From: Nitrospirota bacterium
GTDB lineage: Bacteria; Nitrospirota; Nitrospiria; Nitrospirales; Nitrospiraceae
Assembly (NCBI GenBank): GCA_963703955.1
Contig: CAVPGK010000017.1
Coordinates: 322,858 to 386,857, forward strand
Direction: 5' to 3'
DNA length: 64,000 nucleotides
Both the position numbers and the translations under genes were made by a program. Below the pieces are notes generated by a model. The model did no database searches and was not told the origin of the DNA. It was given only the letters and a program-made list of their open reading frames with translations. Positions 26,413 to 56,826 of the stretch are shown piece by piece; the first letter of the stretch is position 1, and every line of letters starts with the position of its first letter.

Positions 26413-26591
26413 TGCTGTTCAGCAGCCTAAGCGGCGCGAGTCTGATTCCTGCGAGGTTATGGTGGCGTTACATCTCTGTTCCCCCAGGTGCGTCCAGAGA
26501 AAAGCAAGAGAACAGTATCATATGCACCTTTCGGTTGAGATAGCGCATCATACTCCTTTATAGTGCGTATCCCTGCCGTTTGATCTGCATG

Positions 26592-26623
26592 TTAACACGC
26601 CTGTAACATGCCTCCTGTATAAA
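26592..26623 (+). promoter_or_regulatory. Pho-box-like repeat plus -10 (pit)
   Basis: TTAACA 26592, GTAACA 26603, TATAAA 26618. Confidence 0.65.
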
Positions 26624-26683
26624 GGAAGCTTTGCAGCGGCATGTGATCGGCACCTTTCCATTGTATCTATTCTAAGAGGAAAC

Positions 26684-28273
26684 ATGAATCAGGACCACGT
26701 ACTCACACCTCGCATGATTTCAAACGGCACCCGCACATCCTTCTCGATGCTCTTTATTCTCGTGTTGAGCATCGGAATCCTGTACGCCGGCAGTGAACTC
26801 CTGAAAGATCTGGCTAACGTGCGTCTCACTTCAACGTGGCCGTATGTCCTTCTGGGAGTGGCGCTCCTCATTGCGCTCGGATTTGAATTTGTGAATGGCT
26901 TTCACGATACGGCGAACGCGGTTGCGACCGTCATCTACACCAATTCATTGAAGCCCTATCCCGCCGTCATCTGGTCAGGCGTCTGGAACCTGATTGGTGT
27001 GTTGGTCTCCACCGGAGCCGTCGCTTTTGGAATTATCGCCCTGCTTCCCGTGGAACTGATTCTCCAGGTGGGCAGCCGTGCGGGCTTTGCCATGGTCTTT
27101 GCATTGCTCTTCGCAGCCATCATTTGGAATCTCGGCACCTGGTACCTCGGTTTGCCCTCGTCAAGCTCCCACACGCTGATCGGATCGATCGTTGGGGTGG
27201 GGTTGATGAACCAGATCCTGCAGGGGGACGCCAACACCAGTGGCGTCGACTGGAGTCAAACGGCGAAAGTGGGGTATTCTCTCCTGCTCTCACCATTGAT
27301 TGGGTTTGGTTGCGCCGCGCTGCTGTTGCTGGTTGCCAAGATCATTCTCACAAACCCTTCCCTTTATCAAACACCGAAGAACGACGAGCCCCCACCGCTC
27401 TGGATCCGCGGACTGCTTATCCTGACATGCACGGGTGTGAGTTTTGCCCATGGCTCCAACGACGGCCAAAAGGGTATGGGCCTCATCATGTTGATCCTCA
27501 TCGGCACGGTGCCGACGGCCTACGCGCTCAACCGTGCAATGCCGCCTTCCCTAACGGAGAGTTTTGTGACGATCTCCCGCGACGCTTCCCAGGTACTTGG
27601 CAAGCATGTAGACGGCACGGAGTCAAAGACACTCAACCCACGTCAGGAGGTGGGACAGTTCCTGAAAACCCGTCGCCCGAGCCAGACGACAATGGGCAGT
27701 CTGAGCATGCTCACCGAGGAAATTTCTCAAGAGGTTTCTCGTTACGGTTCATATGCCAAGATGCCCGACGACCTGGTAGGTAATATTCGAAACGACATGT
27801 ACATGGTTTCCGAATCGCTCCGACACCTAGCCAAACTTAGTACCCCGGCGTTCAGCGTACAAGAGAAAGACGTCCTGAAGCGGTATAAATCCGAGCTTGA
27901 TCATGCGACCAAATACATCCCGGCATGGGTCAAGGTTGCCGTTGCGATCGCACTGGGGTTAGGCACGATGGTTGGCTGGAAGCGTATAGTCGTGACCGTG
28001 GGTGAACGAATCGGCAAGACCCATTTGACCTATGCCCAAGGCGCGTCCGCCGAATCGGTCGCGATGGCCACCATTAGCGCGGCGGATGCGTTCGGTCTTC
28101 CGGTCAGTACAACCCAGGTCTTGTCGTCGGGGGTAGCTGGGACCATGGCCGCGAACCGGTCCGGCCTCCAGTGGAGTACGGTTCGCAACATCCTCATGGC
28201 GTGGGTGTTGACGTTGCCCATGTCCATTGCGCTGGCGGGGGGACTCTATTGGTTCTTTCGACTCATGTTGTGA
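26684..28273 (+). CDS. pitA: Inorganic phosphate transporter, PiT family
   Basis: NGFHDTANAVAT, PSSSSH, HGSNDGQKGMG, PVSTT motifs. Confidence 0.95.
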   Translation: MNQDHVLTPRMISNGTRTSFSMLFILVLSIGILYAGSELLKDLANVRLTSTWPYVLLGVALLIALGFEFVNGFHDTANAVATVIYTNSLKPYPAVIWSGVWNLIGVLVSTGAVAFGIIALLPVELILQVGSRAGFAMVFALLFAAIIWNLGTWYLGLPSSSSHTLIGSIVGVGLMNQILQGDANTSGVDWSQTAKVGYSLLLSPLIGFGCAALLLLVAKIILTNPSLYQTPKNDEPPPLWIRGLLILTCTGVSFAHGSNDGQKGMGLIMLILIGTVPTAYALNRAMPPSLTESFVTISRDASQVLGKHVDGTESKTLNPRQEVGQFLKTRRPSQTTMGSLSMLTEEISQEVSRYGSYAKMPDDLVGNIRNDMYMVSESLRHLAKLSTPAFSVQEKDVLKRYKSELDHATKYIPAWVKVAVAIALGLGTMVGWKRIVVTVGERIGKTHLTYAQGASAESVAMATISAADAFGLPVSTTQVLSSGVAGTMAANRSGLQWSTVRNILMAWVLTLPMSIALAGGLYWFFRLML

Positions 28274-28760
28274 CGCCGAAATTGATCACTATCTCTATCG
28301 ATTGAGCCCATCTCTCAGGACGATCCCAAGACGAACGGCCGGTGGCGTTGAAGGCGACGACACCGATAATGACGCTTTAAGAATCGGAACAGATACCGGC
28401 ATGTATCCGCAAGTCCACGATATGTGCCGGGGACTGGCCTTCTTTAAATGCGTTATCGATCCTTTGATTGTCTTCCCAGTTGGGTGTCCAGACGCGGTCC
28501 TGCCAGAGTGGTGCAAACATCCGACACACTGCTGCTGCCGCGATGAGCCCCACGTCTCCCCGGAACTAAATCATAACGAATTTGTCGGTAATTTACGCAT
28601 CCTTAACAGCCCAATTAGAAGACGATAATACTTCATTCCTATACTCATGGCCGGTTTATTGCCCCTAAGTGAACCATGCGCTGAAACATGGCTCAGGCCC
28701 TGGAAAGCGTTCAGCTCAGTCGGTTCAAGAGCTTCGTTTCGAGGGTCAAAGCATTCATTC

Positions 28761-29078
28761 ATGAAACAATCAAAAATTGTCGTCGGACCGCTGGTGATTG
28801 ATAGACTACGCCGGTTGGTCCAGGTAGGAGGTCGCTCCATTCACCTAACGCCTAAAGAATTTGCTTTGCTGGTTGCCTTATCAACCCAGCCAGGGAAGCT
28901 CTACCGACGTGAGGAACTGTTACGCAGGGTCTGGGGGGAAGGAGTCTTTGTGGACGTGCGAACCGTAGACGTTCATATGTCAAAGTTGCGGCACAAACTG
29001 CGGAAGAACAAAGACGAGCCCATTCTAGCAGAAACAGTCTGGGGTATTGGTTATCGCCTGCGAGATTCTTCCACTTGA
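28761..29078 (+). CDS. Stand-alone OmpR/PhoB-type winged-helix DNA-binding protein (no receiver domain)
   Basis: LTPKEFALL, REELLRRVWG, RTVDVHMSKLRHKL, TVWGIGYR. Confidence 0.85.
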   Translation: MKQSKIVVGPLVIDRLRRLVQVGGRSIHLTPKEFALLVALSTQPGKLYRREELLRRVWGEGVFVDVRTVDVHMSKLRHKLRKNKDEPILAETVWGIGYRLRDSST

Positions 29079-29306
29079 ATTCTTCCACTGAACTTGCCTC
29101 ATCACTTGCGCGGCGGCCCTCCAGACGATGTGCTGAATTAATCCACCAAGCCATCCTTAAACGAGCTATCGGAGCCAGTCGTCATTACTCCCTTGAGCTT
29201 TGATTGCGGTCGTCTGTGACGTCGACGGGTCCGCTCATTCCCTCATGAATGTCCCGTTCGAACGTTTTTGCTAGAAGGTTGCTCACTCGCCGGCATCTTC
29301 ACAAAT

Positions 29307-29360
29307 TTAACGACTTCATAACAAGAACCTCAAAATGCCGTTACAGGAATACCCTATATC
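29307..29360 (+). promoter_or_regulatory. Pho-box-like array plus -10 (porin)
   Basis: TTAACG 29307, ATAACA 29318, CTCAAA 29329, GTTACA 29340, TATATC 29355. Confidence 0.65.
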
Positions 29361-29452
29361 AGGACGCGGACTGTGCCTCCCCAATGCTATGGCCAACGAT
29401 CCCAAGAGCTCTAACCCAGCAATAAACCTGCTCCGCGAAGAGGAGGTGTTCC

Positions 29453-32710: not shown

Positions 32711-32764
32711 TTTACAAATCCTTAACAATCTGTTGTCCGGGGGGTAACATCAGCCCTTTACCCT
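32711..32764 (+). promoter_or_regulatory. Pho-box-like array plus -10 (TPR gene)
   Basis: TTTACA 32711, TTAACA 32722, TTGTCC 32733, GTAACA 32744, TACCCT 32759. Confidence 0.65.
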
Positions 32765-32814: not shown

Positions 32815-33684
32815 ATGGGTGTAATCGGGCAACGGCTTCTATGGTCTCTCGGTCTGTGCTACATAGCGGTGCTATGCGGGTGTACCACCCCATTACTGCC
32901 TGCACGTGCACAGGATTCGCACGCTAACTTGTTGGCAAGGGCTGAACTGGAATTTCGCCAAGGTAAAGCTGATCAGGCCCTCGCAACCACGGCGGCCGCA
33001 ATCAGAGCCACACCCGGTCGACCAGACGCGTGGAACGCTCGAGGATTCATTTATGCTTCCCAAGGGCACAGTGATGAGGCGATCAAGGACTTTACTGAGG
33101 CCATCCGACTGAACGGAACCCATGCCATTTACCGGAGCAACCTTGGTGTCGCATATTTGGAATCAGGCAAACCCGCCCTAGCGCTCGAGGCCTTCAATGA
33201 AGGTCTGCGGTTAGACCCAAAATCCTCTCTTTTGTTGAACCATCGGGGGAAGGCCTACCGATATATGGGAAGGTTGGACGATGCCCTGCATGACTTCGAT
33301 GCAGCGGCAGACCTGAATGGTGATGATGCAACGATCTATGCAAACCGTGCAGTTACTCATGCGCTTCGCCAGGAGTACGCAGAGGCCAAGCGTGACCTCG
33401 ATGTTGCGGAGGGCTTAAACGACGCTTTACCAGAGGTCTACCAAAGTCGTGGACTGATTGAAATGCTCACCGGTCGCTTCGACAAAGCGGAAGGTGATTT
33501 TTCCAAGGCTTTGGCCCTAGGCGCTGGCGATAACTTACTCTATTACAACCGTGCAGTCGCCCGGTCCATGCTCGGCGATTCGGCCGGTGCACAACAGGAC
33601 TACACGTTTTCCTGCCGAAGGGGCTATGTGTCGGCCTGCGGGTTCAGCCGGATCATCTCCCGGCACGGTACTCCTGCCCTTTAG
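32815..33684 (+). CDS. Tetratricopeptide-repeat lipoprotein
   Basis: LCGC lipobox; repeated NxRG...A..DF..A TPR units. Confidence 0.88.
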   Translation: MGVIGQRLLWSLGLCYIAVLCGCTTPLLPARAQDSHANLLARAELEFRQGKADQALATTAAAIRATPGRPDAWNARGFIYASQGHSDEAIKDFTEAIRLNGTHAIYRSNLGVAYLESGKPALALEAFNEGLRLDPKSSLLLNHRGKAYRYMGRLDDALHDFDAAADLNGDDATIYANRAVTHALRQEYAEAKRDLDVAEGLNDALPEVYQSRGLIEMLTGRFDKAEGDFSKALALGAGDNLLYYNRAVARSMLGDSAGAQQDYTFSCRRGYVSACGFSRIISRHGTPAL

Positions 33685-36568: not shown

Positions 36569-38166
36569 TCACGACCGACCGGCGGCTGAAAAGCGAATCC
36601 GACCTTCGACAGATCCGACCAAAGCCTGGTCTTGCAGCGCCTCAAGCAAGATGTCACGGATCGGGATCTGACGCTCGATGCGTCGTTCGGCATTCGTGAA
36701 GATCGTGTACCCGTCCCCGCCGTCGGCCAAGAACAGATCGGTGGTCACCGAATATCGCCGCGTTCTGTCCAGTGGTCGCCCACCCACCGATAGCTCCTGA
36801 ACCCGCGAGCCGGGTGGGGACGACACGTCGTAGGTGACCGTGAGTCCCGATACCTGAAGAAAACGGCCTGCTGTGCCGGGTAGCATGCTGGCGCTGTTTT
36901 CCAAGGCCTGTAGAAGTTGCTGCCCTGTCATGAAGAACGTCACGGTCGAGGAATCAAACGGCAGCACCTTCTGCACGTGTTCCATGGTGACGGGGCCGGC
37001 AGGAATGCTATCTCGGATCTGACCGCTGTTAATCAAGGCGATATCCGTATGGAACTTGGCGCGCAACAGATCAGCCAGCAGGTTGCCCAGATTGGTCTCA
37101 CCCGACCTGATGCGGCCATGTTCTCCATCGAGAGCCACGAGAGACGTCCCCACGATCATCGCCGACTCTCTTTCAAGCCTTCTACTATAGCCGGCGATGA
37201 GAGCAGCGATGGACGGGTCCGGAGGACGATCATCCGTCACTGGGAGGTTTCGAGCTTTCGCGGACACAACTTTGGCACGGCCGGAGACCCCGTCCCCTTT
37301 GACAATCACCAAGTCGAGTCGCCCGACCGTGCGCCCCAGACGGTGGGTTTTCACAAGCACAGGTCCTGGGTCGGCTAATTCCTCGACCGGCGTCGGAATT
37401 GTCGCGGGTCTCAATCCGTCGAACCCCTCGGTGTGTCCGCCAATGACGATATCGACTTCCTGAAGCTGAGTGAGCAGCGCGACATCCTCGTCCGTCTGCT
37501 CATGGGTAATCGCAGCGACCAAGTCAGCCCCTGCTTCCGTCTTCAGTGCGTGTGCAAGAGCGCGCGCGGTCTCGACGGGATCGCGGAGCTCGAGAAACTT
37601 GGCCGCCTCCCGATTGAACGTGTCGGGAAATTGCTTCTTCCGAGGAGACCGATCAACCCTATCGACAAGTCGCCGACACGGACGACGACTGAGGCGCGAC
37701 AGGGAAGTTCCACCGACCGGCCCACTACGTTCGAGCAGAGTATTGGAAACTCGGCAAGCTCATTGAGACGACGGAAATGATCCAGTCCAAAATCAAACTC
37801 ATGATTGCCGGCACCCATCGCCTGATACCCCATCTGGTTCATGGCTTTGATGTCCGGCTCACCCCGGAAAGCTGAAGACAGCGCTGTTCCGATCAAGATA
37901 TCTCCGGAGTCAACGAGCAGCACGCGCTCGGTTTCGCGGCGCACCGTGGCGATCAGCGCAGCCCGCGCCGCCATCCCTCCGACGTTATGCCCACCCGATT
38001 CAACGGGCAAGGCCGCCCCATGATGTTCGCTGGTATGGAGGATGGTCAGGGTCTGCTCGGCGTCCGATGCGGAGACATCCGCGCGCGCAAAGAGACCGCA
38101 GAGCAGAAAAATGAGGTGCAACACGACCGGCTTCATGTTTTCCATGGCTAAACAGTGAGGCCCCAT
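36569..38166 (-). CDS. Bifunctional UDP-sugar hydrolase/5'-nucleotidase (UshA-like), frameshifted near 37620
   Basis: ILHTSEHHG, DSGD, GNHEFDFG in ORF 37543..38166; GGHTE, ETNLGNLLAD, NSGQIR, FLQVSG, GGDGY in ORF 36569..37522. Confidence 0.88.
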
Positions 38167-38501: not shown

Positions 38502-38981
38502 TCACCCCGTTGCATTCCACTTGGTATACGGATGCTCAACTAATCTGGCATTCGTGTATCGAAAATCTTTGGTTACTTCTTTTCCTATCCACTCCGGTTT
38601 GGCGAATGGTTCGTTCTCTTCTTTGAGTTCAATTTCAGCAACAACTAAGCCTTTGTTCTCGCCATGGAACTCATCGATCTCCCAGAGGTGGCCCTTGTGG
38701 TGGATCTTGTATCGGGTCTTCTCAATGAGTGGACGCTGGCACAACTGGTCGAGGAGCTTCATGGCATCTTCCAATGGAATTGGATATTCGAATTCGGGAG
38801 CTGTGTCGCCAAGTCTTTCTCCTTTGATGGTAAGAATTGCATTTTCACCGACCACGCGGATTCGCACCGTTCGCTTCGGATCGATCGAAAGGTATCCTTG
38901 CCGATACAGTTCGCCCGCAGCTCCGTGTTTCCAGGCAGATGAGGTTAACAAAAACTTCTTCTCTATTTCTTCGTTCTTCAT
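38502..38981 (-). CDS. CYTH-domain protein (triphosphate tunnel metalloenzyme)
   Basis: EIEKKFL (ExExK), QGYL, VRIR, LTIKG, EFEY, EKTRY, WEIDEF, AEIEL. Confidence 0.93.
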   Translation of the reverse strand: MKNEEIEKKFLLTSSAWKHGAAGELYRQGYLSIDPKRTVRIRVVGENAILTIKGERLGDTAPEFEYPIPLEDAMKLLDQLCQRPLIEKTRYKIHHKGHLWEIDEFHGENKGLVVAEIELKEENEPFAKPEWIGKEVTKDFRYTNARLVEHPYTKWNATG

Positions 38982-39556: not shown

Positions 39557-40762
39557 CTACTTGGCAATAGTGATGCTGGGGACTCCGACGCGAGGCACCT
39601 CGCTGATGGTCATTTGGAATAACAGGTACAACAATTGGAACGCCTGGCGATTCCAGCGTGCCAGCGGTCCCTTGCTGTTCACGGAGTAATACTTTCCGTG
39701 GAACTGAATCGACAGGTCGGCTACCGAGGGTGGTCCATCTGAAACCACGAGATCCATCGTGTGCACGGGGTTCTCCGCGACCAGTGGTGTCCGCGGATCC
39801 GGGTCGACGTGGTATTCGGGGTCTTCTTCCAGCGATCGGCCCAGAAAGTTGAGAATGGTATTGAAGCTCCGCAACCGGAAATCTCCCTTGAGGGGGTATT
39901 CCCCTCCGACGTGCCCCGGACGGATGTCGAAGGAAACATCGTTGAAGTTCCCTTCCTCCGTTTCGTCGACCAACCGGGCCAGTTCCTCGGTTGAGAGCGT
40001 GTCGGGGTCATAGTTGGTGATGAGAATCCGGCCCGTGACTTGTTTGATAAGGGTATAGGTGTTGTCTTTCTGGTTATAGGTCACGAGATACTCTTTCTCG
40101 AACGCCTGGAAGCCTTCGGCTGTGACCGAGCTAGCGGGAATGGTCCAGGTCCGATCGAAGACGAGCGGTTCGGCATAGAGCTGGTTCCGGTCCTGAATGG
40201 CTGACAGGTGCGTCACGACCTGACGGAACAGCTCGTAGCCCGCCCGGTCTTCCGGCGTATTGCGGTAGGCGATATCCTGACCATTCCGTTTGATCCGCAG
40301 TTCCTGCGCCATCAGCCTGAGCAGCAGATCGATGTCGAACCGCTGCCGGAGCAGGAGCGTGAACTTGGTTTCTTCAAAGGGCCTCAAGAGCCGCTTGGTG
40401 AACTCTTCCCCTTCGATAGGCGCGATACTGATGGTGGGGTTCTCCGCCACGCTGCCGCCGAAGATCGGCATGAGCAGCGCGCCGACGTCTCCGGTGAGTG
40501 CCGGCGTGGCCCCGGCAGTGACGCGAAAATCGAAGGTCGCGGCGATGTTCGACACACCGGTGAAGTGAATCGGCTCATGGTGCTGCGCCCGCGCGATGTT
40601 GATCAGGAGCTGCTTCGACAGCGAGTCCGTGACGGCATCGTCGTAGGCGATGACGGCTCGGTTCAACGTGATCGGCGAGAGGCATCCTGACAGGGCCAAA
40701 ACGCACAAGATTCCTGCCAGGGCGAGTGGCACGAAGGATTGTGAACGTTGCCCCATCATCAT
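39557..40762 (-). CDS. Hypothetical lipoprotein
   Basis: LSGC lipobox; long clean ORF; QLLINIAR...EP.HF, ENPTISIAP. Confidence 0.75.
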   Translation of the reverse strand: MMMGQRSQSFVPLALAGILCVLALSGCLSPITLNRAVIAYDDAVTDSLSKQLLINIARAQHHEPIHFTGVSNIAATFDFRVTAGATPALTGDVGALLMPIFGGSVAENPTISIAPIEGEEFTKRLLRPFEETKFTLLLRQRFDIDLLLRLMAQELRIKRNGQDIAYRNTPEDRAGYELFRQVVTHLSAIQDRNQLYAEPLVFDRTWTIPASSVTAEGFQAFEKEYLVTYNQKDNTYTLIKQVTGRILITNYDPDTLSTEELARLVDETEEGNFNDVSFDIRPGHVGGEYPLKGDFRLRSFNTILNFLGRSLEEDPEYHVDPDPRTPLVAENPVHTMDLVVSDGPPSVADLSIQFHGKYYSVNSKGPLARWNRQAFQLLYLLFQMTISEVPRVGVPSITIAK

Positions 40763-40997
40763 GTACCCTCCTTCGATCGCGTACGACGATCCTGAGACGA
40801 GTTTGTAGCATATCGGGCGCGAGATGCCTAGCATTGAAGGGGGCCCTATTCATAGAATCTCCTCTGATGCGACGAGTTGTGCCATACACGGACATTGTCT
40901 CTTGCTGTCAATCGAGCGGGTGAATCTGCGCGAAGCGGCATGATAAGGCCACCGCCGCTGAGCGCCGTTTGTTAGGCTGAGCTTCTTTTGAGTGGAA

Positions 40998-42133
40998 TCA
41001 CTGGTTCACATGCACGACCTTGGCCGGCGGGAAGCCGTTGAAGAAGGTGCTGCTGGCGGCGCAGTAGGCACCCATGTTCTCGGAGTAGACCAATTCGCCC
41101 AGGTCCATGTCGGGCAGCTGCTCGGCCAGGCTGATGGTGTCGAGGGCGTCGCATGTGGGGCCGAAGACGGCGCAGAGCTGCGTGGGGCCTTTCCTGAAGC
41201 TTTTCAGGTGGTACTGGCAGTGGTCGAAGATCACGCCGCTGTAGGTGTGATAGACGCCGTCATCGAGATAGTAGCAGAGCTTGCCGCCACGGACGGCCTT
41301 GCCGATGATCTGGGCGACGGCGGTGGCGGCGGAGGCGACCAGGAACCGCCCCGGCTCGGCGAGAATCTCGATCGGCTTGGGAAAAAGGCGGTCCAGTTCG
41401 GCGTTGATCGTTTTGGCCAGGCTCTTGAAGGCAGGGACGGTGTCGTCGTAGTGGGCGGGGAAGCCGCCACCGATGTCGAGCAGCTTGAGATCGAAGCCGC
41501 GCGTCTTGGCCTCGGAGAAGATGCTCGACGGCCAGGTGCAGAGCCTGGATGTAGTTTTGCACGTTCGTGCACTGGCTGCCGACGTGGAAGCTCAGCCCCT
41601 CGACCTCGAGCTTGTTGTTGTGAGCGAAGGCGATCAGGTCCACGGCCTCGCCCGGCAACGCGCCGAACTTGCTCGACAGCTCCACCATCGACCCGGTGTT
41701 GGGCACGCGCAACCGCAACACCAGGCCCGAGTGCGGGGCGTAGCGCGCGATCTTGAGCACCTCCTCGTGGTTGTCGTAGGTGACCAACGGCTTGTATTGA
41801 TCCAACTGCTTGAGCGTCTCGATCGCCTTGATCGGGTTGGCGTAGATGATGCGATCCCAAATGAAGTCCTGCCGCTGCTTGCGCCGGCAGATCCTTGATC
41901 TTCTCGTGCACGATCAAAAACTCGGCCATGCTGGCGACGTCGAAGCTGGCCCCCACGTCGTAGAACGTCTGCACGATGGCCGGGTCGCTGTTGGCCTTGA
42001 CCGCGTAGTAGACCTGCACGCGCGGCAGGTGCTTTCGGAACTGCTCGTAGTTCTCCCGCAGCACTTTATGGTCCACCACGACCAGCGGCGTGCCGTGCAT
42101 CTTGGCCAGTTGAAGCAGCGTCTTTTGGTCCAT
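40998..42133 (-). CDS. Ornithine decarboxylase (type III PLP-dependent), frameshifted twice
   Basis: YYAVKAN, FDVAS, SKFG, SFHVGSQC, DIGGGFP, EPGR, GPTCD, MGAY spread over three frames. Confidence 0.9.
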
Positions 42134-44216: not shown

Positions 44217-45127
44217 AAAAGGAGGCCTTCCTTTTCCAGCATCGGAGTTGTTTGAGTTGGACGAACTGAAACGTCAGCCACCTCCGCGGCCTTCTGCTCA
44301 AGGCGTCTCGCAGGCCTGCCCCTGGAATTCCGACTCGTCAATCAATTGGAGTTTGGTCACGATAAATTCAAATCCCGATAGTCACTCCTCCTTGCCTGGA
44401 CTGAAAATCCCGGGACGTCACGTGGAACGCTCGGTTAAAGACAAGGAGGCGGTTATCCTCCGCCGTGCAAGGTCAGGTCCTCCTCCCGGTCTGGGACACG
44501 ATTTTGGCCGGGTGCTGAAATTTTCGACTGTATTCCTCGTAGCTTTTCACCGGCTGACCGAACGCGCAATCGGTATGCAGGCACCACGCGGCCTTTCTCA
44601 CCTCGCTAAACTCCAGACTATTCCTGTTACATTCTGCACAAGTCGCCATGGTCTATTCCTCCTCTCTGGCTAGGGAAGATGGAAATCGCGCTCGTTGTGA
44701 TGGCAGATAGCCACTGAAGGTACGTTCATATGCTCTCGCTCTGCACCCGCGAACATCTCTCTAGAGCTATTTTGGGAATCTCATTAAGGAATTGGTCAGC
44801 CAGGGCAGGGCTCAATGCAGACAGCTTTCTTCGTTCAATGGCCCGCACTGGCTGACCTTTCGGTTCCTGAGTGTCGTAAGTCCGCTCAAACTGACTCTAC
44901 GCAACCCTATCGAGGATGTCGGGCACCTGGGGCGCGGTCCGGCGCGACTGTCTCGATTACTTTGCGCCGGATCGTTAAGCCGCAGTATTCTTCCTGTCAT
45001 GACAAATCAGCACTCCGCTCACAACGCCGCTCCACACTCACCACAATCAGTCGTAGCAGGCAAAGCAAATGTCATGGTGCGGGAGGAGTTTTGATTGGGT
45101 GGAGGAAGCTCTTAGTCAAGTCGTCAT

Positions 45128-46120
45128 TCAACACTCGGTCCGTTGTTTGATCTTTCCTAGCTCCACCTGCACCAGTGCTCCATCCAGCGGAAAATACCCA
45201 TGCTCGAGCACCTCGCCTTGGCCATCGCGACTGTATACGTACGTGAGGAATTCTTGGATCAAAGGAGTGAGCGGTTTGCCCGGCACTTGGTTGACGTAAA
45301 TGTAGAGGTGGCGCGTGAGTGGATAGGTGCCCTTTTTCGCCCTTTCCAGAGTCGGTTCCACGAAGGGCCCCTTCGTGGTTTCGGCAAGGGCCAGCACGCG
45401 GACCCCCGATGTGGAATAAGCGATTCCACTGTAGCCTAGGCCGTATCGATCTTCGGTAATGCCTTGCACCACCGAAGCTGAGCCCGGCTGCTCCTTGACT
45501 TCATCCTTGAAGTCGCCGTTCTTGAGCGCGCGTTCTTTGAAGAAGCTATAAGTACCCGAGGCAGAGTTCCTGCCGTAGAGGCTGATCGGCGACGAACCCC
45601 ACGCTGCGCCTAGGCCGAGTTGGCTCCACTTCGTCATCGCTTCTTTCGCGCCGAGCCGCCGGCTCTTTGAAAAGATGGCATCGACCTGCTCCATGGTGAG
45701 CCGCTTGAGCGGATTGTCTTTGTTGACGTAGAGAGCAACCGCGTCGATCGCAACCAGGAGGCAGACCGGTTGGTATCCGAATTTGGCTTCAAATTTGTTG
45801 ATCTCGCTTTCCTTCATCCTGCGCGACATCGGACCAAGCTGGGCGGTCCCTTCGATCAAGGCCGGAGGGGCGGTGCTCGAACCTTTGCCCTCCACTTGAA
45901 TCTTCACGTTCGGATACTGCCGGCGGAATCCTTCCGCCCAAAGGGTCATGAGATTATTCAGCGTGTCGGAGCCAATGCTGTTCAGGGTGCCGGACACGCC
46001 GCTCACTTTCTTGTACGGTTTCAGAGTCGGATCGAGCCCCGAGCGCTCCTCGGGCGAGCCGGGGACCGGCATGACCAATCCGAACCACAGAATCAACAAG
46101 CCAATAACCCGATAAGGCAT
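45128..46120 (-). CDS. pstS: Phosphate ABC transporter substrate-binding protein (copy 1, orphan)
   Basis: GSDT, GKGSSTAPPAL, MSR, GRNSASGTY, YSGI.Y, YPL.R.LYIY. Confidence 0.95.
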   Translation of the reverse strand: MPYRVIGLLILWFGLVMPVPGSPEERSGLDPTLKPYKKVSGVSGTLNSIGSDTLNNLMTLWAEGFRRQYPNVKIQVEGKGSSTAPPALIEGTAQLGPMSRRMKESEINKFEAKFGYQPVCLLVAIDAVALYVNKDNPLKRLTMEQVDAIFSKSRRLGAKEAMTKWSQLGLGAAWGSSPISLYGRNSASGTYSFFKERALKNGDFKDEVKEQPGSASVVQGITEDRYGLGYSGIAYSTSGVRVLALAETTKGPFVEPTLERAKKGTYPLTRHLYIYVNQVPGKPLTPLIQEFLTYVYSRDGQGEVLEHGYFPLDGALVQVELGKIKQRTEC

Positions 46121-46712: not shown

Positions 46713-46732
46713 CGAGCTCGTGGAGGCTGATC

Positions 46733-46748
46733 TGGCATTCCTGTTGCA
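46733..46748 (+). promoter_or_regulatory. Sigma54-type -24/-12 promoter (apparently orphaned)
   Basis: TGGCAT-TCCTG-TTGCA; only a 28-codon ORF follows at 46810. Confidence 0.4.
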
Positions 46749-47400
46749 TAGCCAACTGAGCAGAAGAGAGTCGTAAGCTCATTTGGGTTATGAAAGCGGG
46801 TGAGAGGACCATGAAGTTCGTACCGTTCATATGGACATGGTTGCTTGTACTGCCATTGCGGCATGAATTGGCACAACGGCTATATGCCCTACTGTGAAAG
46901 TGCGATGGCCACCCAGGTAGCCTCATAAGCATGCGATCCTACTCCCCGCATGTTGTCCAAGGCGTCAACCCATTACGTTCCCACGCTTCCTTGTGGATGA
47001 AGCCGTGGCGGTGTACCTCGCTGAGCGCTGACGCGGTGGTGCTGATTGGCATCGCGAGGTTTTTGTACCAAGCCGGTTTAGCTCCTCTCGATGTCACGTT
47101 TAGTGTGAGGCTCAGTCGCATGCGCCCGACCCAACGCGCCGATCCCTCGGCACCGCGCCGTTCCTTCGGCGCGGACACTTGGTCACACCCTGACACTATC
47201 GCAAGCAGAACCTGCATTCGATTCGTCATAACCCCTCTTCTGTTCGTCACTTGTCAGGTCCGTGGTGGATCGGCCCATTGCTGGAACGGTCTATGCCTTA
47301 CCTTAGCGTCAAGAGCCAGTCATCGACAGATGACTGTTGAGTAGACGCGGGGAATGGCGACGAGAGGCGCGATGAACAACTCATAGAGGAGGACATTGCC

Positions 47401-48679: not shown

Positions 48680-48716
48680 GAAGCAGCATCGCGCTGCCAA
48701 GCGTTAATGGAGGAGA

Positions 48717-48860
48717 GTGATGGCAGTCACCATCGTTTGGGATACGTGGTTGAAGCCTGGCACCGAAACGGAAGGGCTCCGGCTTACGCGGCAGGTCTGG
48801 TCGGACATGCGGAGCTTTGAAGGCTACCTGTCGCATCGGATTCTCATCGATCAGGATACC
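48717..48860 (+). pseudogene. Antibiotic-biosynthesis-monooxygenase-like N-terminal fragment
   Basis: GGAGGAG RBS; LKPG.E......MRSFEGYLS.RIL pattern, running in frame into the next gene. Confidence 0.5.
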
Positions 48861-48878
48861 CAAGTGCGAGGAGACACG

Positions 48879-49628: not shown

Positions 49629-50339
49629 ATGGAGAAAGTAACCGATCAGCCCGGCAAGGTCTTAATCGTGAGCGGCAACCAGATGATCGGTGCGGGGATC
49701 CGGATGATCCTCGAGACTCAGCCCAACATGCTCGTCATTGGCGAGGTGGCCACGGCCCACAGAGCCGTCGAAGTCGCAGGCCATGAGCAGCCGCGGGTCG
49801 TTCTGATTGACCTCGATCGTTCCGCAATTGATGTTGTGCGTCTCATTCGAGACTTACAAAAGGCTGCTGAACAATCACTGGCGCTGATCTTAAGTAGCTT
49901 AGGGGACGGCGACTTGACTCGTATGGCGTTATGCTCGGGGGCGGTAGGAGTTGTGTTGAAAGTCCAGCCTCCGGCCGTCCTGATCGCAGCCGTTGCCGGT
50001 CTTTGCGATGGCGACCTTCAGATTGAGCGCCAACGCATGCCCCCTGCCCCATACGTGCTCAATGACCAACGCCCGGTAAAACAAGCGGACCACGAGAGAG
50101 CACGAATAGATGACCTGACGACCCGCGAGCGAGAAGTAATAGGCCTCATCGGTGAAGGCTTAAAGAACAAAGATATCGCCGATCGACTGTGCATCAGTGA
50201 GATCACGGTGCGACACCATCTCACGAACATCTATGGCAAGCTGGATGTCTCTAACCGACTGAAGTTGCTCATTCTCGCTCACCAGCATGGACTCGTCGAG
50301 CCGGTCAGTTCTCGCGCCACATGGCCGACAAGCGCCTGA
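49629..50339 (+). CDS. NarL/LuxR-family response regulator
   Basis: Receiver-like domain plus LTTREREV...G.KNKDIADRL.ISE.TVRHHLTNIYGKL HTH. Confidence 0.92.
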   Translation: MEKVTDQPGKVLIVSGNQMIGAGIRMILETQPNMLVIGEVATAHRAVEVAGHEQPRVVLIDLDRSAIDVVRLIRDLQKAAEQSLALILSSLGDGDLTRMALCSGAVGVVLKVQPPAVLIAAVAGLCDGDLQIERQRMPPAPYVLNDQRPVKQADHERARIDDLTTREREVIGLIGEGLKNKDIADRLCISEITVRHHLTNIYGKLDVSNRLKLLILAHQHGLVEPVSSRATWPTSA

Positions 50340-50800
50340 TTACGATCTGTTCGTTGCGAACCAGACATTGCAGAGGAAGTCAAACTGCCGGCATACATTA
50401 TTCTCTAATGGGTAACCTGGGCTTCTCTCGCTAACACCTATATGACACTAACCATCGGCACCCTTTCTTTCACTAGCGAGGTGTTGGGCAGGCACAGGTA
50501 GGGTATAGAGGCGTACAGTGTCACGCTAAAAGTCATGGGGGGTTCGATAACAAAAATTTTTTCGAAATTGCAAGAAGGCGAATCAGGGACAGAGGGCTTT
50601 TCACGTCGGAGCGAGGTGGAGGATGAAGCCGATCGAGTGACCAAAGCGCGCAAGATTGGAACGACACTCCGAGAGAAACAGGCCCCAAAGCTACCTGCTC
50701 ATATCGCAGTGGTCTTCCTTATCCTTTGGCAACCAGAGCGTATCATTCAGGAATAGGTTGCACCCTCTCTTGTTCAGCAATTCTAAGTCGACCCCGTTTT

Positions 50801-52075: not shown

Positions 52076-52149
52076 CGCAACGAGAGCCAAATGTATAACC
52101 TGGTAAGAGCACGTGCCCCCCTCTTTTTGGTTCTGCGATGGCGCGTCTA

Positions 52150-52870
52150 CTACTCGAGGACTTTAGCCACGGCGGCTCGCGAGGTCAGCGGATTTGGGGT
52201 TCTCGACGCTGTGCTCGACCAGGATATCCGTAGGCCGCACGTCCTTCCCGTAGTAGGCCGCATTGGAACCATCCGACACGGCGACCAACGCCCCATCCAG
52301 CTGCATACCCACATAGATCCCCTTGCTCTTGGCATACGAGAGAAGGTCGGCCGTCACCCCGGTGATCGCTCCGCCCCCGCCGATAGGGCCCGCCGAGACG
52401 CCCGCGTCGAGGCCCAGTTTGAAGTCGTGCCGATAAAACTGTTCGAGACCTCGTGTTGTCCTGATCAGGAACACCAGTTGCGACGCATCCCCCCCGGCTT
52501 GCAAGCCGAAACTCACCGAGCCCATCGTGTAAAAGGCCGGCTGCGACCAGGCTCCCGTCTTCTCATTGCGGACGAGAAGGACGCCGCTTCCGCCCCTGCC
52601 ACCGAAGATAAATGCGCCCCTCAGCAACTGCGGGACGATAAAGATACCTTTGGGATCTGGGACGTCCCTCGGGAGCGCCGTTTTCAGGTTCGGATCGGCG
52701 CCAAAGGCTTCCATGGTCAGCTTCGCCTTATCGATGAGCTGTTGCTGTTCGGAAAAGTCTGCCGTGATTGCCGGTGTTGCCGGAAGGGCAACCAGCGCAG
52801 AAACCCATACGGTGGTGAGAATCAAGAATGCGAGTATCGAACGTATTTTCCGCCTTGTTCTACCATTCAT
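52150..52870 (-). CDS. Lipid-binding SYLF (Ysc84-like) domain secreted protein
   Basis: GG.GGSGVL, WSQPAF, S.GLQAG, AGP.G, SYAKSKG.YVG, N.AYYG; probable indel near the 3' end. Confidence 0.88.
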
Positions 52871-53183
52871 GTGCTTGCCTCCTTGGGAATTGCTCGGCCG
52901 CGTAGCACGGCCCTCTTGGTGAATTGGTCGGCCGTGCATAGCACTACCCTCTTGTGTCACGTATCTACGAGTTGGTGGTTCTTGCGGTGGTAAGAATGGG
53001 GTGCATTGGCTGCCGTCAACCCTATACTCGCGGTCGCTCGAAAACAACTGGCAATTTGGACTGTTCTTCTGCCCTTCCGTATGAGGAAGTCCAGGTATTG
53101 GGGGAATGATCCGTTCAATCCTAGGAGAGAAGTGAGAGAGGCTAGAGTATTGAAGCGTGTTGAACAATGCTGATGCGGGAATG

Positions 53184-53212
53184 GGCCATAGGTTCGACCC
53201 CTACACCGCCCA
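53184..53212 (+). other. Degenerate tRNA 3'-end fragment (Val-like)
   Basis: ATAGG-TTCGACC-CCTAC-ACCGCCCA: T-arm plus acceptor 3' strand with no 5' half. Confidence 0.5.
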
Positions 53213-53559
53213 TCTCTTCAAACGCGCCTGAAACAGCCGCTTCAACATCCAAGTTCGCACGTACCTCAAAGGTCTTTTTTTAGTTCCAAAAAACCCTTGC
53301 TATCGAGACAAGGTGTTAGTCATGAGCTACGATGCCAGCATCATCCGACCACCAATGCCACGAAAACAAGAATGCCGCCCGGCACCCCTTCATGCCATGT
53401 TTGCTCGTTCAGAAAAGCGTCCACTACGGAATGCGAGGAATTACAGGGAACTGATAGGGATCAACATTGAGAACAAAAGTGTAGCAGCCGCAGTATTCAT
53501 ATTGATTTGGGGCGATTCCCAAGGAATTTTGAACAGCTCCGAAGTGCTCGAGTTAGGGT

Positions 53560-54252
53560 TTACGAATCTGCTTTCAGCTTGTACCCAACCCCGCGCACTG
53601 TCGTGATAAACCGAGGGTGCGCGGGGTCGCGTTCGATCTTCTGCCGAAGCGAGTGAATGTGCACGTCCAGGGTGTGCTCTTCCAACTCACAGCCTTCTCC
53701 CCAAACTTGATTCAACAATTCGTCTCGCGAGAACACGCGGGAGGGATGAGACACCAACTGCAGGAGAATCCGGAATTCCTTCGGCGTCAGGTCAATGAGG
53801 CGTCCGTCAACCGTGACTTCATGCCGATCCACGTCCACGCGCAAGGTGCCGACATCATAGCTAGGCTTCGGCATCGTCGCCAAACGCTCCCGGCGCAACA
53901 CCGCTCTGATTCTTGCAATGACCTCGCGGTACCCTTGATTGCACAGAACCATGTCTGCATCCCCGTCAAGGTCCTGCAAAGAGTGCTCTTCGTTGCAGGT
54001 ATGTCCGGGCGGGTGCAGCGCAATGACCGGAACTTTGTTGAGGTCATGTTCGCGCCGTAAGTGGTCGATATGGCGTTGCCGTCGATCCACCAGCATCATG
54101 GCGGGCATCGTTTGGCGCGCTCTCGCCACCCCACCAGCCACCGTACCGACGATCGTGACGCGATAACCGTTGTCGCCGAGCTGTTTCTCCATGGTTCGCG
54201 CAAAGAGTTCATCCGATGTCACCAACAAAATCTGCTCAAGCCCGTCGCCCAT
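53560..54252 (-). CDS. OmpR/PhoB-family response regulator with atypical receiver
   Basis: ARIRAVLRR, LTPKEF, SRDELLNQVWG, TLDVHI.SLRQKIE, TVRGVGYK. Confidence 0.9.
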   Translation of the reverse strand: MGDGLEQILLVTSDELFARTMEKQLGDNGYRVTIVGTVAGGVARARQTMPAMMLVDRRQRHIDHLRREHDLNKVPVIALHPPGHTCNEEHSLQDLDGDADMVLCNQGYREVIARIRAVLRRERLATMPKPSYDVGTLRVDVDRHEVTVDGRLIDLTPKEFRILLQLVSHPSRVFSRDELLNQVWGEGCELEEHTLDVHIHSLRQKIERDPAHPRFITTVRGVGYKLKADS

Positions 54253-54284
54253 TCTTGGCCCCCACCTCCGAGATAGCCTCGCAC

Positions 54285-54338
54285 AGGATAGGGGTCTGCT
54301 ATTTCGCGGATGTGTCCCCCACGTTACAGGCGTGTAAA
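54285..54338 (-). promoter_or_regulatory. Pho-box-like array plus -10 (regulator; possible autoregulation)
   Basis: Minus strand TTTACA (54333-38), GTAACG, GACACA, GAAATA at 11-bp steps, then TATCCT (54285-90). Confidence 0.6.
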
Positions 54339-54466
54339 TTCTAAGTGTTCATGACCCCGACAGCACGTTTAACAGGCGTCAGCCCGTCTGTATTAAGCTT
54401 GTGTAAATTCTTCGTGAACCCTGCCCTCCCGATTGAGTCCTTCCTCTCTCCTGGAAGTCTAAAAAG

Positions 54467-54520
54467 TTAACAGAGTCATGACCTTCCGTTGAAGGTGATG
54501 GAACAGACGGACACTACCAT
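54467..54520 (+). promoter_or_regulatory. Pho-box-like array plus -10 (CBS-psiE)
   Basis: TTAACA 54467, ATGACC 54478, TTGAAG 54489, GGAACA 54500, TACCAT 54515. Confidence 0.6.
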
Positions 54521-54605
54521 GGCGCATGGGTGTAGACAGTTTGAGAGTCAGCCCAGCAATTCAAGAGCGGAAATCTAAAACGGATTCTTTCAAAGGAGGA
54601 ATGAA

Positions 54606-54989
54606 ATGGTGACCGCTCAAAAGCTCATGAAGCAAGACCTGGCGAAAGTGCACGTCTCCGCGTCGGTGTCTGAGGCAGCCAAGCTGATGCGAGAGCGGAA
54701 AATCGGCAGCGTGTTTGTCGAGCAGAATGATCGCATCATCGGAATCGTCACCGAGACGGATATCGTGCGGCGAATCGTGGGCCGAGACCAGATGCCCGGC
54801 TTCGTGCCGGTCGCCAGCATCATGAGCAGTCCGATCATCGGCATTGACGCGACCCGGCCCATCACGGAAGCCGCCGATCTGATGGAGCGCAACCAGACCC
54901 GCCATCTGGCGGTCATGAAATCCGGGAACATCGTGGGAGTTCTGTCGGTCAGGGATCTCCTGCATCCGGTGTCGATCGATGAATTTTAA
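54606..54989 (+). CDS. CBS-domain protein
   Basis: Two CBS motifs (GIVTETDI; GVLSVRDL); AGGAGG RBS. Confidence 0.92.
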   Translation: MVTAQKLMKQDLAKVHVSASVSEAAKLMRERKIGSVFVEQNDRIIGIVTETDIVRRIVGRDQMPGFVPVASIMSSPIIGIDATRPITEAADLMERNQTRHLAVMKSGNIVGVLSVRDLLHPVSIDEF

Positions 54990-55152
54990 GGGGGTCTGCG
55001 ATGAAGGATTCTGTGTCTGATATCTGGTTCTCTTTCTTTCCTCGACCGGGATGGCTCAGCCGAACCGCGGACAAGGAAGAAGAGGCCCGTCCCCGGGAAA
55101 AGAGTCGGTCCGGCCGGCTGGGGCGGGTGGGTGAAAAGAAGGAAAGCCGGTC

Positions 55153-55698
55153 GTGGCCGGGTTCCAGTGGATGGGTAAAAACACTGAAGACCCTGTCTTG
55201 GCGGGCTCAGAGATGGGCGGATGGAAACGCGCCTGGGGCGGATGGGTGACATCGGACCTGACCAGTCTCTGGATGAGAGGGATCAAGATTGTTCTAAGCC
55301 TTCTGATTGTCACCATCCTGGCGGCACTCGCCGGCGGGGTGGCCAAGACATTTCTTGATCTGCAGCTCTTGCTCCACAGCCCGTTGGAGGTGGCGCTGCG
55401 GCACGTGATCATCGATACGCTGATTCTGCTGGCGGTGGTCGAAGTCTTCAAAACCACGCTGACCTATTTTTCCGAAGGACGGGTCAAGGTGACCTTTATC
55501 GTGGATACCATCCTCGTCGTCATGCTGACGGAAATTATCTCCCATTGGTTCAAAGGGGGCGATCTGGTCCAGTTCGGAGTGCTCGGCGCCATCTTGCTGG
55601 TGCTCGCAGGGATGCGCGTCCTCGCCGTCCGATTTTCACCCGCGCAAGAAGACGGACTCCATCACTCATCGGACTATGCCCAACGGCTGAGGCCGTGA
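55153..55698 (+). CDS. Phosphate-starvation-inducible PsiE family membrane protein (start uncertain)
   Basis: Four TMs; L.LL.VVEVFKT...YF.EGRV.V.FIVD..LV..L.EII. Confidence 0.75.
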   Translation: MAGFQWMGKNTEDPVLAGSEMGGWKRAWGGWVTSDLTSLWMRGIKIVLSLLIVTILAALAGGVAKTFLDLQLLLHSPLEVALRHVIIDTLILLAVVEVFKTTLTYFSEGRVKVTFIVDTILVVMLTEIISHWFKGGDLVQFGVLGAILLVLAGMRVLAVRFSPAQEDGLHHSSDYAQRLRP

Positions 55699-55805
55699 GA
55701 ATTTACACTCTTCTAACCTTTCCATGATGAAGGTGACATCGCACCCAGGTACTCTATACGATCAGGAAGTCTGGCGTTCCGCGAAAGAATGGAGGTGAGT
55801 CGCGA

Positions 55806-56006
55806 ATGAAATGCCCGCACTTTGTCGAGGAGCATCGCAACATGAGTGCCTTGTGCCTCGGTGTTGCGGTTCCATTTGAACCCAGTCGGGTCGATCAGCT
55901 CAACTTTTGCCGGACGGGCTACCACCGGCATTGTCCGCTGTATCGGAATGCCGTTGACGATCTATCGCTGGAGATCCACCAGGAAGTGGCCCGCGCCATC
56001 GGGTAA
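55806..56006 (+). CDS. Small Cys-rich protein
   Basis: GGAGG RBS; CP...C...PS......FC......CP.Y pattern. Confidence 0.65.
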   Translation: MKCPHFVEEHRNMSALCLGVAVPFEPSRVDQLNFCRTGYHRHCPLYRNAVDDLSLEIHQEVARAIG

Positions 56007-56036
56007 TCCCCAGATGCGGGCAGGGAAAACAGGCGC

Positions 56037-56480
56037 ATGAATATGACGGCACCAAATATCGGTGACCCATCCCTCTCTCAGACAGACAGACTGAAAACCG
56101 AAGGGACCGGGATTCTGGTTCTGGTCTCACCACTGCGGATTGTCTATGCGAACGCAGCGGCCAGGGTTGTGACCTCCCACCTCAAACAACTCATGTTCGA
56201 CGAGAAGCCGGGACCCGGATTACCAGATGAGATTCTCGACTTCTGTGAGAAGGTGATGAGCCTCTTAGAAGATCAAGAGAGTGACCACCGCGCTCAGACC
56301 CAGCCCTTTGAGCTTTGCCGAGAGATTCATGTGGCGAGCGAGCGCATTCTGCTTCGAGGGATAGGATTGCCGAGGCCGGAAGGCGGGGTGGACTCACGAG
56401 CCTGCATCCTGATGGACATAGTCCGTCCTGGAGTCGATCGGTCTGATGGGCCACTCAGAAGGAGCACGTGTTATGCCTAA
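56037..56480 (+). CDS. Hypothetical protein (PAS-like)
   Basis: GILVL....RIVYAN.AA resembles a PAS N-terminus. Confidence 0.5.
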   Translation: MNMTAPNIGDPSLSQTDRLKTEGTGILVLVSPLRIVYANAAARVVTSHLKQLMFDEKPGPGLPDEILDFCEKVMSLLEDQESDHRAQTQPFELCREIHVASERILLRGIGLPRPEGGVDSRACILMDIVRPGVDRSDGPLRRSTCYA

Positions 56481-56715
56481 TCCACATTCTCCACAAGAGG
56501 ATTTGATCTTGGACGTGCTGTCGTCGGGAGAAGTATTGACTCTGGAGCAGCTGATCGCAGAGGTACCGGAGTTGAGCTGGAGCCAGCTATTTCACGCCGT
56601 GGACGCACTCAGCCGGCACGGCGACATCGCGCTGCGACGCCGGGGGTTCCAGTACGAGCTGTCGTTGCGCATTCAACGTCACGCGATGGACTGTCTGGCA
56701 TCTTCATCGGCCTGA
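56473..56715 (+). CDS. Small hypothetical protein (winged-helix-like)
   Basis: AGGAG RBS; TLEQL....PELSWSQLF.AVD.LSR.G.I.LRR. Confidence 0.55.
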   Translation: MPNPHSPQEDLILDVLSSGEVLTLEQLIAEVPELSWSQLFHAVDALSRHGDIALRRRGFQYELSLRIQRHAMDCLASSSA

Positions 56716-56761
56716 ATCCGAACAGCAATTCCATGTATTTACAGGTACCACTTGAATCAGC

Positions 56762-56826
56762 TTGACCATGATTTAACCGTTTCTTAACATTCCGGCAATT
56801 GTCCGGCAATCCGGTTCGTTTAGGCT
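56762..56826 (+). promoter_or_regulatory. Five-unit Pho-box-like array plus -10 (pstSCAB)
   Basis: TTGACC 56762, TTAACC 56773, TTAACA 56784, GCAATT 56795, GCAATC 56806, TAGGCT 56821; similar layout upstream of the other pstS (46157-46220, minus). Confidence 0.75.

Follow-up and report, generated by a model that had tools for sequence, protein, structure and literature searches.

Candidate Pho boxes of four 11-bp units in a phosphate island of a Nitrospirota bacterium

Tandem-repeat boxes for phosphate regulators have been described in several bacteria. Bacillus subtilis PhoP and the pstS PHO box of Lacticaseibacillus paracasei use four TT(A/T/C)ACA-like units at an 11-bp period (PMC11870197, citing Eder 1999), cyanobacterial SphR has the box CTTAACCT with at least three repeats (PMC1906773), Desulfovibrio PhoB (DVU1083) has the box (c/t)GT(n)AC (PMC3333781), and Streptomyces PhoP provides a further box variant (PMC2275107, PMC4415409). 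Escherichia coli phoBR itself lies within its regulon (PMC10294691). Here, we investigated a 64,000-nucleotide stretch of DNA from a Nitrospirota bacterium (the window; G000:C17:322858-386857), which holds a 44-kb phosphate island at ~18.9 to 62 kb. The assembly (G000) measures 3.3 Mb and is 82% complete, and its named relatives are Nitrospiraceae. An initial annotation had proposed that arrays of TTAACA/GTAACA-like hexamers upstream of island genes form a Pho regulon. Our results agree with this: with a probability of about 0.86, the arrays are conserved Pho boxes of the Nitrospirales PhoB-PhoR system, likely binding the phosphorylated PhoB encoded on contig C21, as the layout recurs upstream of pstS throughout the order, tracks the PhoB/PhoR orthologue and is also seen before orthologues of several annotated genes. 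We found no description of such boxes for Nitrospira in the open literature, although subscription journals, regulon databases and supplements may hold predictions.

The consensus was TTAACA-N5-GTAACA-N5-nTnAY-N6-GnAAY-N10-TAnnnT, a standard box being four 11-bp units, the third of them degenerate, followed by 9 bp and TAnnnT. Four such units at an 11-bp period are shared with Bacillus PhoP and L. paracasei. In contrast to Bacillus PhoP, the Nitrospira units are position-specific (TTAACA, GTAACA, nTnAY and GnAAY), the recognition helix of the C21 regulator keeps PhoB-type arginines, and the Nitrospiraceae phoB operon is unboxed. As with E. coli PhoB, 11-bp units lie over the -35 position, and E. 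coli pstS likewise has four, but the upstream Nitrospira units read TTAACA/GTAACA rather than CTGTCAT and four units are the rule. The hexamer had been annotated as resembling Bacillus PhoP and cyanobacterial SphR boxes more than E. coli CTGTCAT, but neither the box nor its 9-bp gap distinguishes these promoters from those of E. coli: phoA, pstS and phoB there have GTCAY units 9 bp before the -10 (TATAGT, TATTTT and CATAAT, with GTCATA in the register of GTAACA), and many units 3 and 4 in Nitrospirales also read GTCAY. Since both the E. coli register and the Bacillus-type units match, we regard the geometry as canonical. The SphR and DVU1083 boxes share the core hexamer type and the tandem layout before pstS, but their regulators belong to other clades, and unit number and polarity differ.

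Layout, statistics and conservation of the boxes

We counted hexamers with at most one mismatch to TTAACA/GTAACA in window positions 20,001-62,200 and compared them with 100 local shuffles. There were 14 pairs at 11-bp spacing (shuffle mean 3.1, maximum 8); the 7 pairs at 22 bp were not a significant excess (mean 3.5, maximum 9), and the rest of the genome had no 11-bp peak (127 pairs at 11 bp, 73-139 at other spacings). Of 14 island chains defined mechanically, 6 had TAnnnT at the 9-bp gap and at most one had it in any other phase; outside the island, the 9-bp figure was 8 of 221 chains. When 29 pstS loci of relatives were anchored solely on the best pair of adjacent units, a strong pair was found in 25, with TAnnnT exactly +48 from the first unit in 20 of these. 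Units 3 and 4 appeared in this alignment even though anchoring used only the unit pair.

A scoring model was then built on 24 pstS promoters of relatives (cut-off 16 bits), leaving out L039 of family f4, with a 12.6-bit pair and no downstream units. The genome-wide scan bore out the annotated motif, with 21 matches of at least 16 bits (20 distinct) against 1.5 per shuffled genome (four shuffles), of which 13 lay in the island and 1 at its continuation on contig C11. A site of at least 16 bits was located within 400 nucleotides of 15 of the 52 island genes, compared with 2 of 3,201 other called genes. The arrays named in the initial annotation are present, and 13 of its 15 sites reached 16 bits. 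One might suspect a product of AT-rich intergenic DNA and selection by eye, given the higher AT content of intergenic DNA, the degeneracy of units 3 and 4 and the chance-level score of one annotated site (CYTH). However, composition-keeping local shuffles fell short in both pairs and model matches, and the spacing is fixed in relatives; the suspicion is refuted for the 13 sites and deserves practically no credence overall.

A pattern search over 41 genomes gave 140 matches in 34 genomes, compared with 11 for the reversed pattern, and the model gave 159 sites of at least 15 bits in 716 kb of relatives' DNA, taken around pst genes and pattern matches rather than at random. A TTGACA-like -35 was absent, with at least three mismatches in 146 of the 159 sites. 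Both the tandem 11-bp direct repeats and their covering of the -35 position at a fixed distance from the -10 are features of Pho regulons, as is a place before pstS and other genes of phosphate acquisition. The layout was conserved before pstS across the order and before about ten other gene families. By direct homology, boxes preceded pstS homologues at 43 sites in 23 genomes, CBS homologues in 15 genomes, the four-cysteine miniprotein in 8, psiE homologues in 6, TPR genes in 2 (G011 and G016), slp genes in 2 (G011, no -10; G016, TACAAC) and the uridine-kinase-like (udk-like) gene in 1 (G006). Porin_O_P, CHAD, HAD and metallophosphatase genes were also boxed in relatives. A related 11-bp array ending in CTCATC weakly cross-matches the pattern at G000:C17:114185, G007:C13:291987 and G013:C1:619961.

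The sites of the island, with their model scores, are as follows.

26444..26482, minus strand: array GGAACA/GTAACG/ATAACC/GGAATC upstream of corA-ppk1; four units, no -10 in register; 16.0 bits
26592..26623, plus strand: TTAACA-N5-GTAACA, 9 bp and TATAAA upstream of pit; two-unit box
28592..28645, plus strand: four-unit box and TATACT upstream of the receiver-less winged helix-turn-helix (wHTH) gene; 23.7 bits
29307..29360, plus strand: four-unit box and TATATC upstream of a putative outer-membrane barrel; 17.4 bits
29453-30928, plus strand: the putative outer-membrane barrel, 491 aa, no Pfam match
32711..32764, plus strand: four-unit box and TACCCT upstream of a TPR protein (32815-33684); 29.7 bits
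34393..34431, plus strand: array of four strong units between divergent slp genes, with no in-register -10; 20.0 bits
35525..35578, plus strand: four-unit box and TACCAT upstream of the udk-like gene (ends 36296); 32.0 bits
39010..39030, minus strand: single TTTACG, 9 bp and TATCCT upstream of CYTH; -4.9 bits
46157..46221, minus strand: five-unit box and TAGACT upstream of the orphan pstS (45128-46120); 30.9 bits
49500..49553, plus strand: four-unit box and TATGGT upstream of the NarL-type regulator (49629-50339); 26.9 bits
50801..50854, plus strand: four-unit box and TATACA upstream of a pit remnant and slp; 24.0 bits
54285..54338, minus strand: four-unit box and TATCCT upstream of the atypical regulator; 31.8 bits
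54391..54407, minus strand: TTTACA-N5-TTAATA two-unit remnant, out of phase with the 54338 box
54467..54520, plus strand: four-unit box and TACCAT upstream of CBS (54606-54989) and psiE (55153-55698); 21.4 bits
55702..55755, plus strand: four-unit box and TACTCT upstream of the four-cysteine protein gene; 22.3 bits
56762..56826, plus strand: five-unit box and TAGGCT upstream of pstS-pstC-pstA; 28.2 bits

Several details of the initial annotation changed. It had described arrays of two to five units; the 11-bp phase held, whereas the unit number is better given as the standard four with a degenerate third. The 9-bp spacing to TAnnnT was also retained, but the last T is missing at pit, the porin-like gene and the pit remnant. 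The wHTH array, annotated as lacking a clear -10, does carry a clean TATACT at 28640-28645, in the standard place, and is thus a full promoter; the slp and corA-ppk1 arrays lack a -10 in register, as annotated, and would likely still be bound. The pit array, which is the only exact KTAACA-N5-KTAACA pair of the genome, comprises just two downstream units and TATAAA, scoring 12.1 bits at best with the full model and 16.1 bits on its downstream half. Three close pit orthologues had in-phase arrays (12.5, 18.4 and 7.6 bits) with no TAnnnT at the standard place, and a distant orthologue had no array.

The annotated CYTH site is not supported: a single unit, 9 bp and TAnnnT occurred 24 times in the genome versus 17-34 times for other gaps, so that this unit is at chance level. 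The CYTH gene (38502-38981) was not found in 40 relatives and was therefore probably acquired recently, ahead of the 5'-nucleotidase. The annotated 'porin' label was an inferred one, the protein having no Pfam match even at E<=1. A 27-site 'porin' cluster mixed unrelated barrels, and a count redone by direct homology gave boxed homologues in 8 genomes, 6 of which likewise lack the last T of the -10; no clear homology was found to the Porin_O_P protein L113. The udk-like box is the highest-scoring in the genome. The 55702 box is followed by genes for a 66-aa protein with four cysteines (55806-56006), a 147-aa protein and a helix-turn-helix-like protein of 80 aa, for which neither Pfam nor NCBIfam gave a family; in Atlas, the miniprotein fell only into unnamed clusters.

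Some of the sites are likely evolutionary debris. In a fuller form, PhoB sites would partly be duplicated or captured promoters before genes with no phosphate role (the NarL-type gene, the pit remnant, the second pstS and remnants on C6 and C13), for which we see roughly even chances. The NarL-type regulator, which is without the acidic pair, was annotated as a member and does have its own site, but none of nine homologues was boxed (best 3.0 bits). The orphan pstS and its promoter duplicate the main pstS (87% identical), the 50801 locus duplicates the pit and slp modules, the boxes at C6:172131 and C13:214210 stand before fragments of genes (the latter being an intact box that the 54391 remnant resembles), and several island genes are frameshifted. 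Conversely, CBS, psiE, porin-like, TPR, slp, udk-like, cysteine-rich and OmpR-type genes are boxed in other genomes. Debris of this kind is compatible with Pho boxes read by PhoB and merely trims the gene list.

The probable PhoB-PhoR pair on contig C21

A canonical regulator-kinase pair with intact ED, D, T and K in the regulator is encoded outside the window at C21:70874-73451, adjoining pit and a gene that we take to be DUF47-like. Orthologues of the regulator were found in 32 of 40 relatives. The pair adjoins or sits within the pst operon in families f2 and f3, as expected of a kinase-linked phosphate regulator. The motif was found in 31 of the 32 relatives with a close orthologue, compared with 2 of the 8 without. 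Searches with a positive control located the kinase beside pst genes in G026 and G037 and did not find it in G027, G036 and G029 (96-99% complete). The best NCBIfam model of the regulator was TIGR02154 (PhoB), whose cut-off was passed by just 2 of 14 reference genomes in a control, and we named it PhoB because of synteny and co-occurrence.

Its recognition helix GTTRTVDVHIRRLKQK is nearly identical to that of actinobacterial GlnR in the complex PDB 8HIH, in which four GlnR protomers bind four gTnAc/GaAAC sites around the -35 (PMC10235972). These words match units 2 and 4 of our boxes, and the complex is the best structural model for these promoters, although GlnR is an orphan nitrogen regulator whereas the C21 regulator has a canonical receiver and a cognate kinase. 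Given this resemblance, and the high scores of the YycF and WalK models, the arrays might instead serve another OmpR-family signal, through a GlnR-like nitrogen or WalR-like envelope regulator. However, the boxed genes are those for pstS, psiE, pit, phosphate porins, CHAD and phosphatases, and in two families the regulator pair is found at pst operons. The 17 glnA/amt loci of five relatives exclude a nitrogen regulon, as none had a box (best 6.3 bits); glnA and amtB are absent from the bacterium's own 82%-complete assembly. Such a signal thus seems highly improbable.

Several observations weigh against PhoB-read Pho boxes. The C21 regulator scores 230.5 bits against a TIGR02154 cut-off of 296.2 and lies below every curated PhoB cut-off, the YycF model scores it almost as high, and the best models of its kinase are WalK and PnpS. 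G014 (76% complete) has three matches and no PhoB match, G039 has a single one-mismatch match and no PhoB, and G022 (84% complete, no pstS found) has PhoB and no motif match; moreover, the absences amount to about three lineages, so that the co-occurrence is suggestive rather than statistical. The unit matrix used for anchoring was built from this window, and units 1 and 2 are consequently not fully independent, whereas units 3 and 4 and the -10 are; the relatives' DNA was selected, as stated above. The phoD gene has no box, and none of seven upstream stretches of relatives' ppk1 had a site of at least 16 bits (best 14.1). Finally, none of the 22 Nitrospiraceae copies of the core phoB was boxed (best 3.3 bits), leaving no sign of autoregulation. 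Copies in f2 scored 0.9-18.9 bits (one of four at 18.9), those in f3 lie behind phoU in the boxed pst operon, and a second phoB copy in G001 is boxed. Positive autoregulation of the Pho regulator operon is common, not universal.

We nevertheless regard phosphorylated PhoB of the C21 pair as the probable switch, which would activate genes for phosphate uptake and scavenging under phosphate shortage. By analogy with the OmpR/PhoB family, four DNA-binding domains (two dimers) would sit head to tail on one DNA face at about -60 to -22, the upstream dimer on the two strong units and the downstream dimer on the weaker units flanking the -35 position. The downstream pair would hold sigma-70 region 4, replacing the -35 contact, and the -10 would be read normally. 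Assuming transcripts start ~7 nucleotides after the -10, the units would span -60 to -22, with unit 3 overlapping the -35; the Bacillus PhoP box reportedly occupies -60 to -22 as well.

Regulators encoded behind the boxes

Three OmpR-family proteins are themselves encoded behind boxes.

53560..54252, minus strand: OmpR-family atypical response regulator; D56 kept, acidic pair, Thr and Lys lost
28761..29078, plus strand: stand-alone OmpR-type DNA-binding domain, 105 aa, Trans_reg_C, helix DVRTVDVHMSKLRHK
G000:C11:8505-9184 (L194): C11-type OmpR-family regulator; canonical receiver, degraded recognition helix, boxed, frameshifted here

The first two had been annotated as candidate binders; were either the main one, the arrays would form an autoregulated island regulon. 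Both indeed lie in the island behind boxes, and the 53560 family occurs near pstS in most carriers, with a DNA-binding domain nearly invariant among 120 homologues. However, boxes occur in 23 of the 30 relatives in which the 53560 family was not found (one of these with a single one-mismatch match), including all six of f2; close relatives of the 28761 protein were found in few of 60 genomes (similar short proteins include those of G011, 58%, site 14.4 bits, and G007, 40%, site 22.9 bits); and the 53560 recognition helix EEHTLDVHIHSLRQK has H, H and S where the C21 PhoB helix has three arginines. Because boxes persist where these proteins were not found, neither is likely to be the main binder, and we consider this alternative quite improbable. 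Under control by PhoB, the 53560, 28761 and C11 regulators would rather be second-tier targets.

A response regulator counts as atypical if it lacks one or more of five catalytic residues, DD, D, T and K (PMC12632262), and by this definition the 53560 sequence is that of a pseudo-receiver. The protein had 611 homologues at E<=1e-40. Members were found in 9 of the 24 family genomes, and G026 has a canonical relative. Of 15 gene copies in relatives, 12 had a box of at least 16 bits. Across the 120 homologues, the first acidic position is T/L/M/I, T becomes Q/E/H and K becomes G/N/S/T, and the D is kept in 101 and replaced by E in 19. Cysteines C86, C91 and C104 are conserved (112, 109 and 118 of the 120), C91 being Ser in this genome. 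The predicted structure of homologue P0005 has an OmpR fold (receiver and winged helix; predicted local distance difference test score, pLDDT, 83.7), best matching MtrA, RpaA and KdpE. Alignment places the cysteines in the beta4-alpha4 loop, alpha4 and beta5, where members of the family dimerise; these cysteines may cluster and bind metal or arsenite, or form a disulfide. The 53560 protein also keeps W184, G185, L190, E191 and E192, which correspond by motif to the residues with which E. coli PhoB contacts sigma (PMC3348028).

The OmpR-family pseudo-receivers CmrT of C. difficile (PMC12548384), ChxR and the redox-sensing RitR (PMC12632262) have likewise lost catalytic residues, and the 53560 family, which keeps its DNA-binding domain, differs from all three in lying behind a Pho box. 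Its cysteines are at beta4-alpha4-beta5, whereas the described cysteine of the redox sensors is at alpha1-beta2 (PMC12632262). C. difficile CmrR/CmrT offers a loose analogue (PMC12548384). In a 39-row tree, 17 atypical proteins grouped as a single clade (100/100) outside the PhoB clade (98/97). A branch (94/89) separated them, along with the regulators of G026 and of the C11 type, from PhoB, KdpE-like and one further OmpR-type protein. Since the tree groups it with the G026 and C11-type regulators and not with the PhoB clade, we rejected the idea that the 53560 protein is a recent PhoB duplicate. No separate motif for the atypical regulator emerged from Gibbs sampling of 18 masked upstream regions, which returned only purine/pyrimidine-rich, ribosome-site-like words scoring near the shuffled level (10.1 versus 9.0-9.2 shuffled; 12.3 versus 10.6-11.3).

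The C11-type regulator gene adjoins arsR-arsM-acr3-arsC. Nine copies occurred in eight genomes, six of them boxed, and in five of these six the start codon lies 6-8 nucleotides past the -10, where leaderless transcripts would put it, which supports the -10 call. The atypical and C11-type regulators are not an obligate pair, as they occurred together in five genomes, with the atypical alone in five and the C11-type alone in three. The region G000:C13:208129-214263 (L193) holds part of another atypical regulator gene (54% over 79 aa) and an intact 24.0-bit box before a small CxxC-CxxC open reading frame; similar small zinc-finger-like frames behind boxes were also seen in G005, G015 and G040.

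We speculate, with considerable doubt, that the Nitrospiraceae Pho response has been rewired: PhoB would not be autoregulated and would induce second-tier regulators, chiefly the phosphorylation-defective OmpR-family protein, whose conserved cysteines around the inactive site would sense a metal, arsenite or redox state and so couple starvation to a thiol signal, together with an operon for a phosphorus-free membrane lipid.

Other loci and meaning for Nitrospira

That operon (G000:C10:237779-243111; L191) follows a 31.9-bit box and encodes an ~810-aa protein of no family (frameshifted here), phosphatidylserine-decarboxylase-like and Lgt-like proteins and a TPR protein. An orthologue lies at L212:1054-3474, and operons of this type were boxed (at least 20 bits) in four of five relatives. 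The ~810-aa protein had 2,961 homologues, many in Geobacteraceae. Its predicted structure (pLDDT 88) weakly matches glutamate-cysteine ligases and PafA in Foldseek (best match: E 0.02, probability 0.98, template-modelling score, TM, 0.30/0.45), tentatively suggesting a glutamate-cysteine-ligase fold. Searched by sequence, this family had no match in PDB, a 665-aa fragment fell only into unnamed Atlas clusters, and a literature search on the ligase-fold/decarboxylase/Lgt operon gave nothing relevant. The operon may be a candidate pathway for a phosphorus-free lipid. Additionally, a 23.8-bit box with TAGAAT stands 345 nucleotides before a polyhydroxyalkanoate operon (thiolase, reductase, PhaE and PhaC; G000:C21:104381-110650, L192), whose long leader could hold a small RNA.

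The island carries, on its left, phoD-like, slp, ppk1, corA and pit genes, the lone OmpR-type DNA-binding domain and the putative barrel; in the middle, TPR, a further slp, the udk-like gene, a split 5'-nucleotidase, CYTH and the orphan pstS; and on the right, the NarL-type regulator, pit remnant, OmpR-type regulator, CBS, psiE and pstS-pstC-pstA. Its ends are as follows.

20600..26412, minus strand: phoD-like phosphatase, ppk1 and corA; left end of the island
56863..61927, plus strand: pstS, pstC (5' part in another frame) and pstA; Pfam PBP_like_2 and BPD_transp_1
61916..62089, plus strand: 5' piece of pstB; 94.8% identical to C11:1-173

The pstB gene stops at 62089 after ~55 codons and is followed by tad/Flp pilus genes on the opposite strand, and contig C11 (C11:1-9100) opens with intact pstB-phoU-ppx, two thymidylate-kinase-like genes and a sixA-like gene (by Pfam), and also carries arsenic genes. 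The break at 61916-64000 may be an insertion or an assembly chimera. Split reading frames were seen in the 5'-nucleotidase (36569-38166), a pyridoxal-phosphate-dependent decarboxylase (40575-42133) and pstC (57878-60218); together with the frameshifts on C10 and C11, these may be assembly errors. Short repeats at 44480-44789, 46732-47334, 48683-48861 and 50421-50560 flank the second pstS and the NarL module; copies 75-90% identical occur on other contigs, and they are possible miniature mobile elements. Proteins 18934-20061 and 39557-40834 (minus strand) had no Pfam or NCBIfam family and no box. Outside the island, a TTGACA-N5-TTGACA pair (2623-2639, minus strand) upstream of a MerR/B12-binding regulator gene is probably a different operator.

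The Nitrospira family comprises dominant nitrite oxidisers and comammox organisms, which are hard to culture and genetically intractable. The switch itself is of a known kind and would not surprise a specialist, whereas the absent autoregulation and the cysteine-bearing second-tier regulator might. The boxes point to a likely phosphate-starvation role for unannotated families, namely the CBS-only protein, the four-cysteine miniprotein and the Pfam-less barrel, as well as the pseudo-receiver regulator and the ligase-fold operon shared with Geobacter-type bacteria. They also yield a short list of promoters for in vitro work, and the precise box with its predicted start sites would provide a marker set for phosphate stress in metatranscriptomes.

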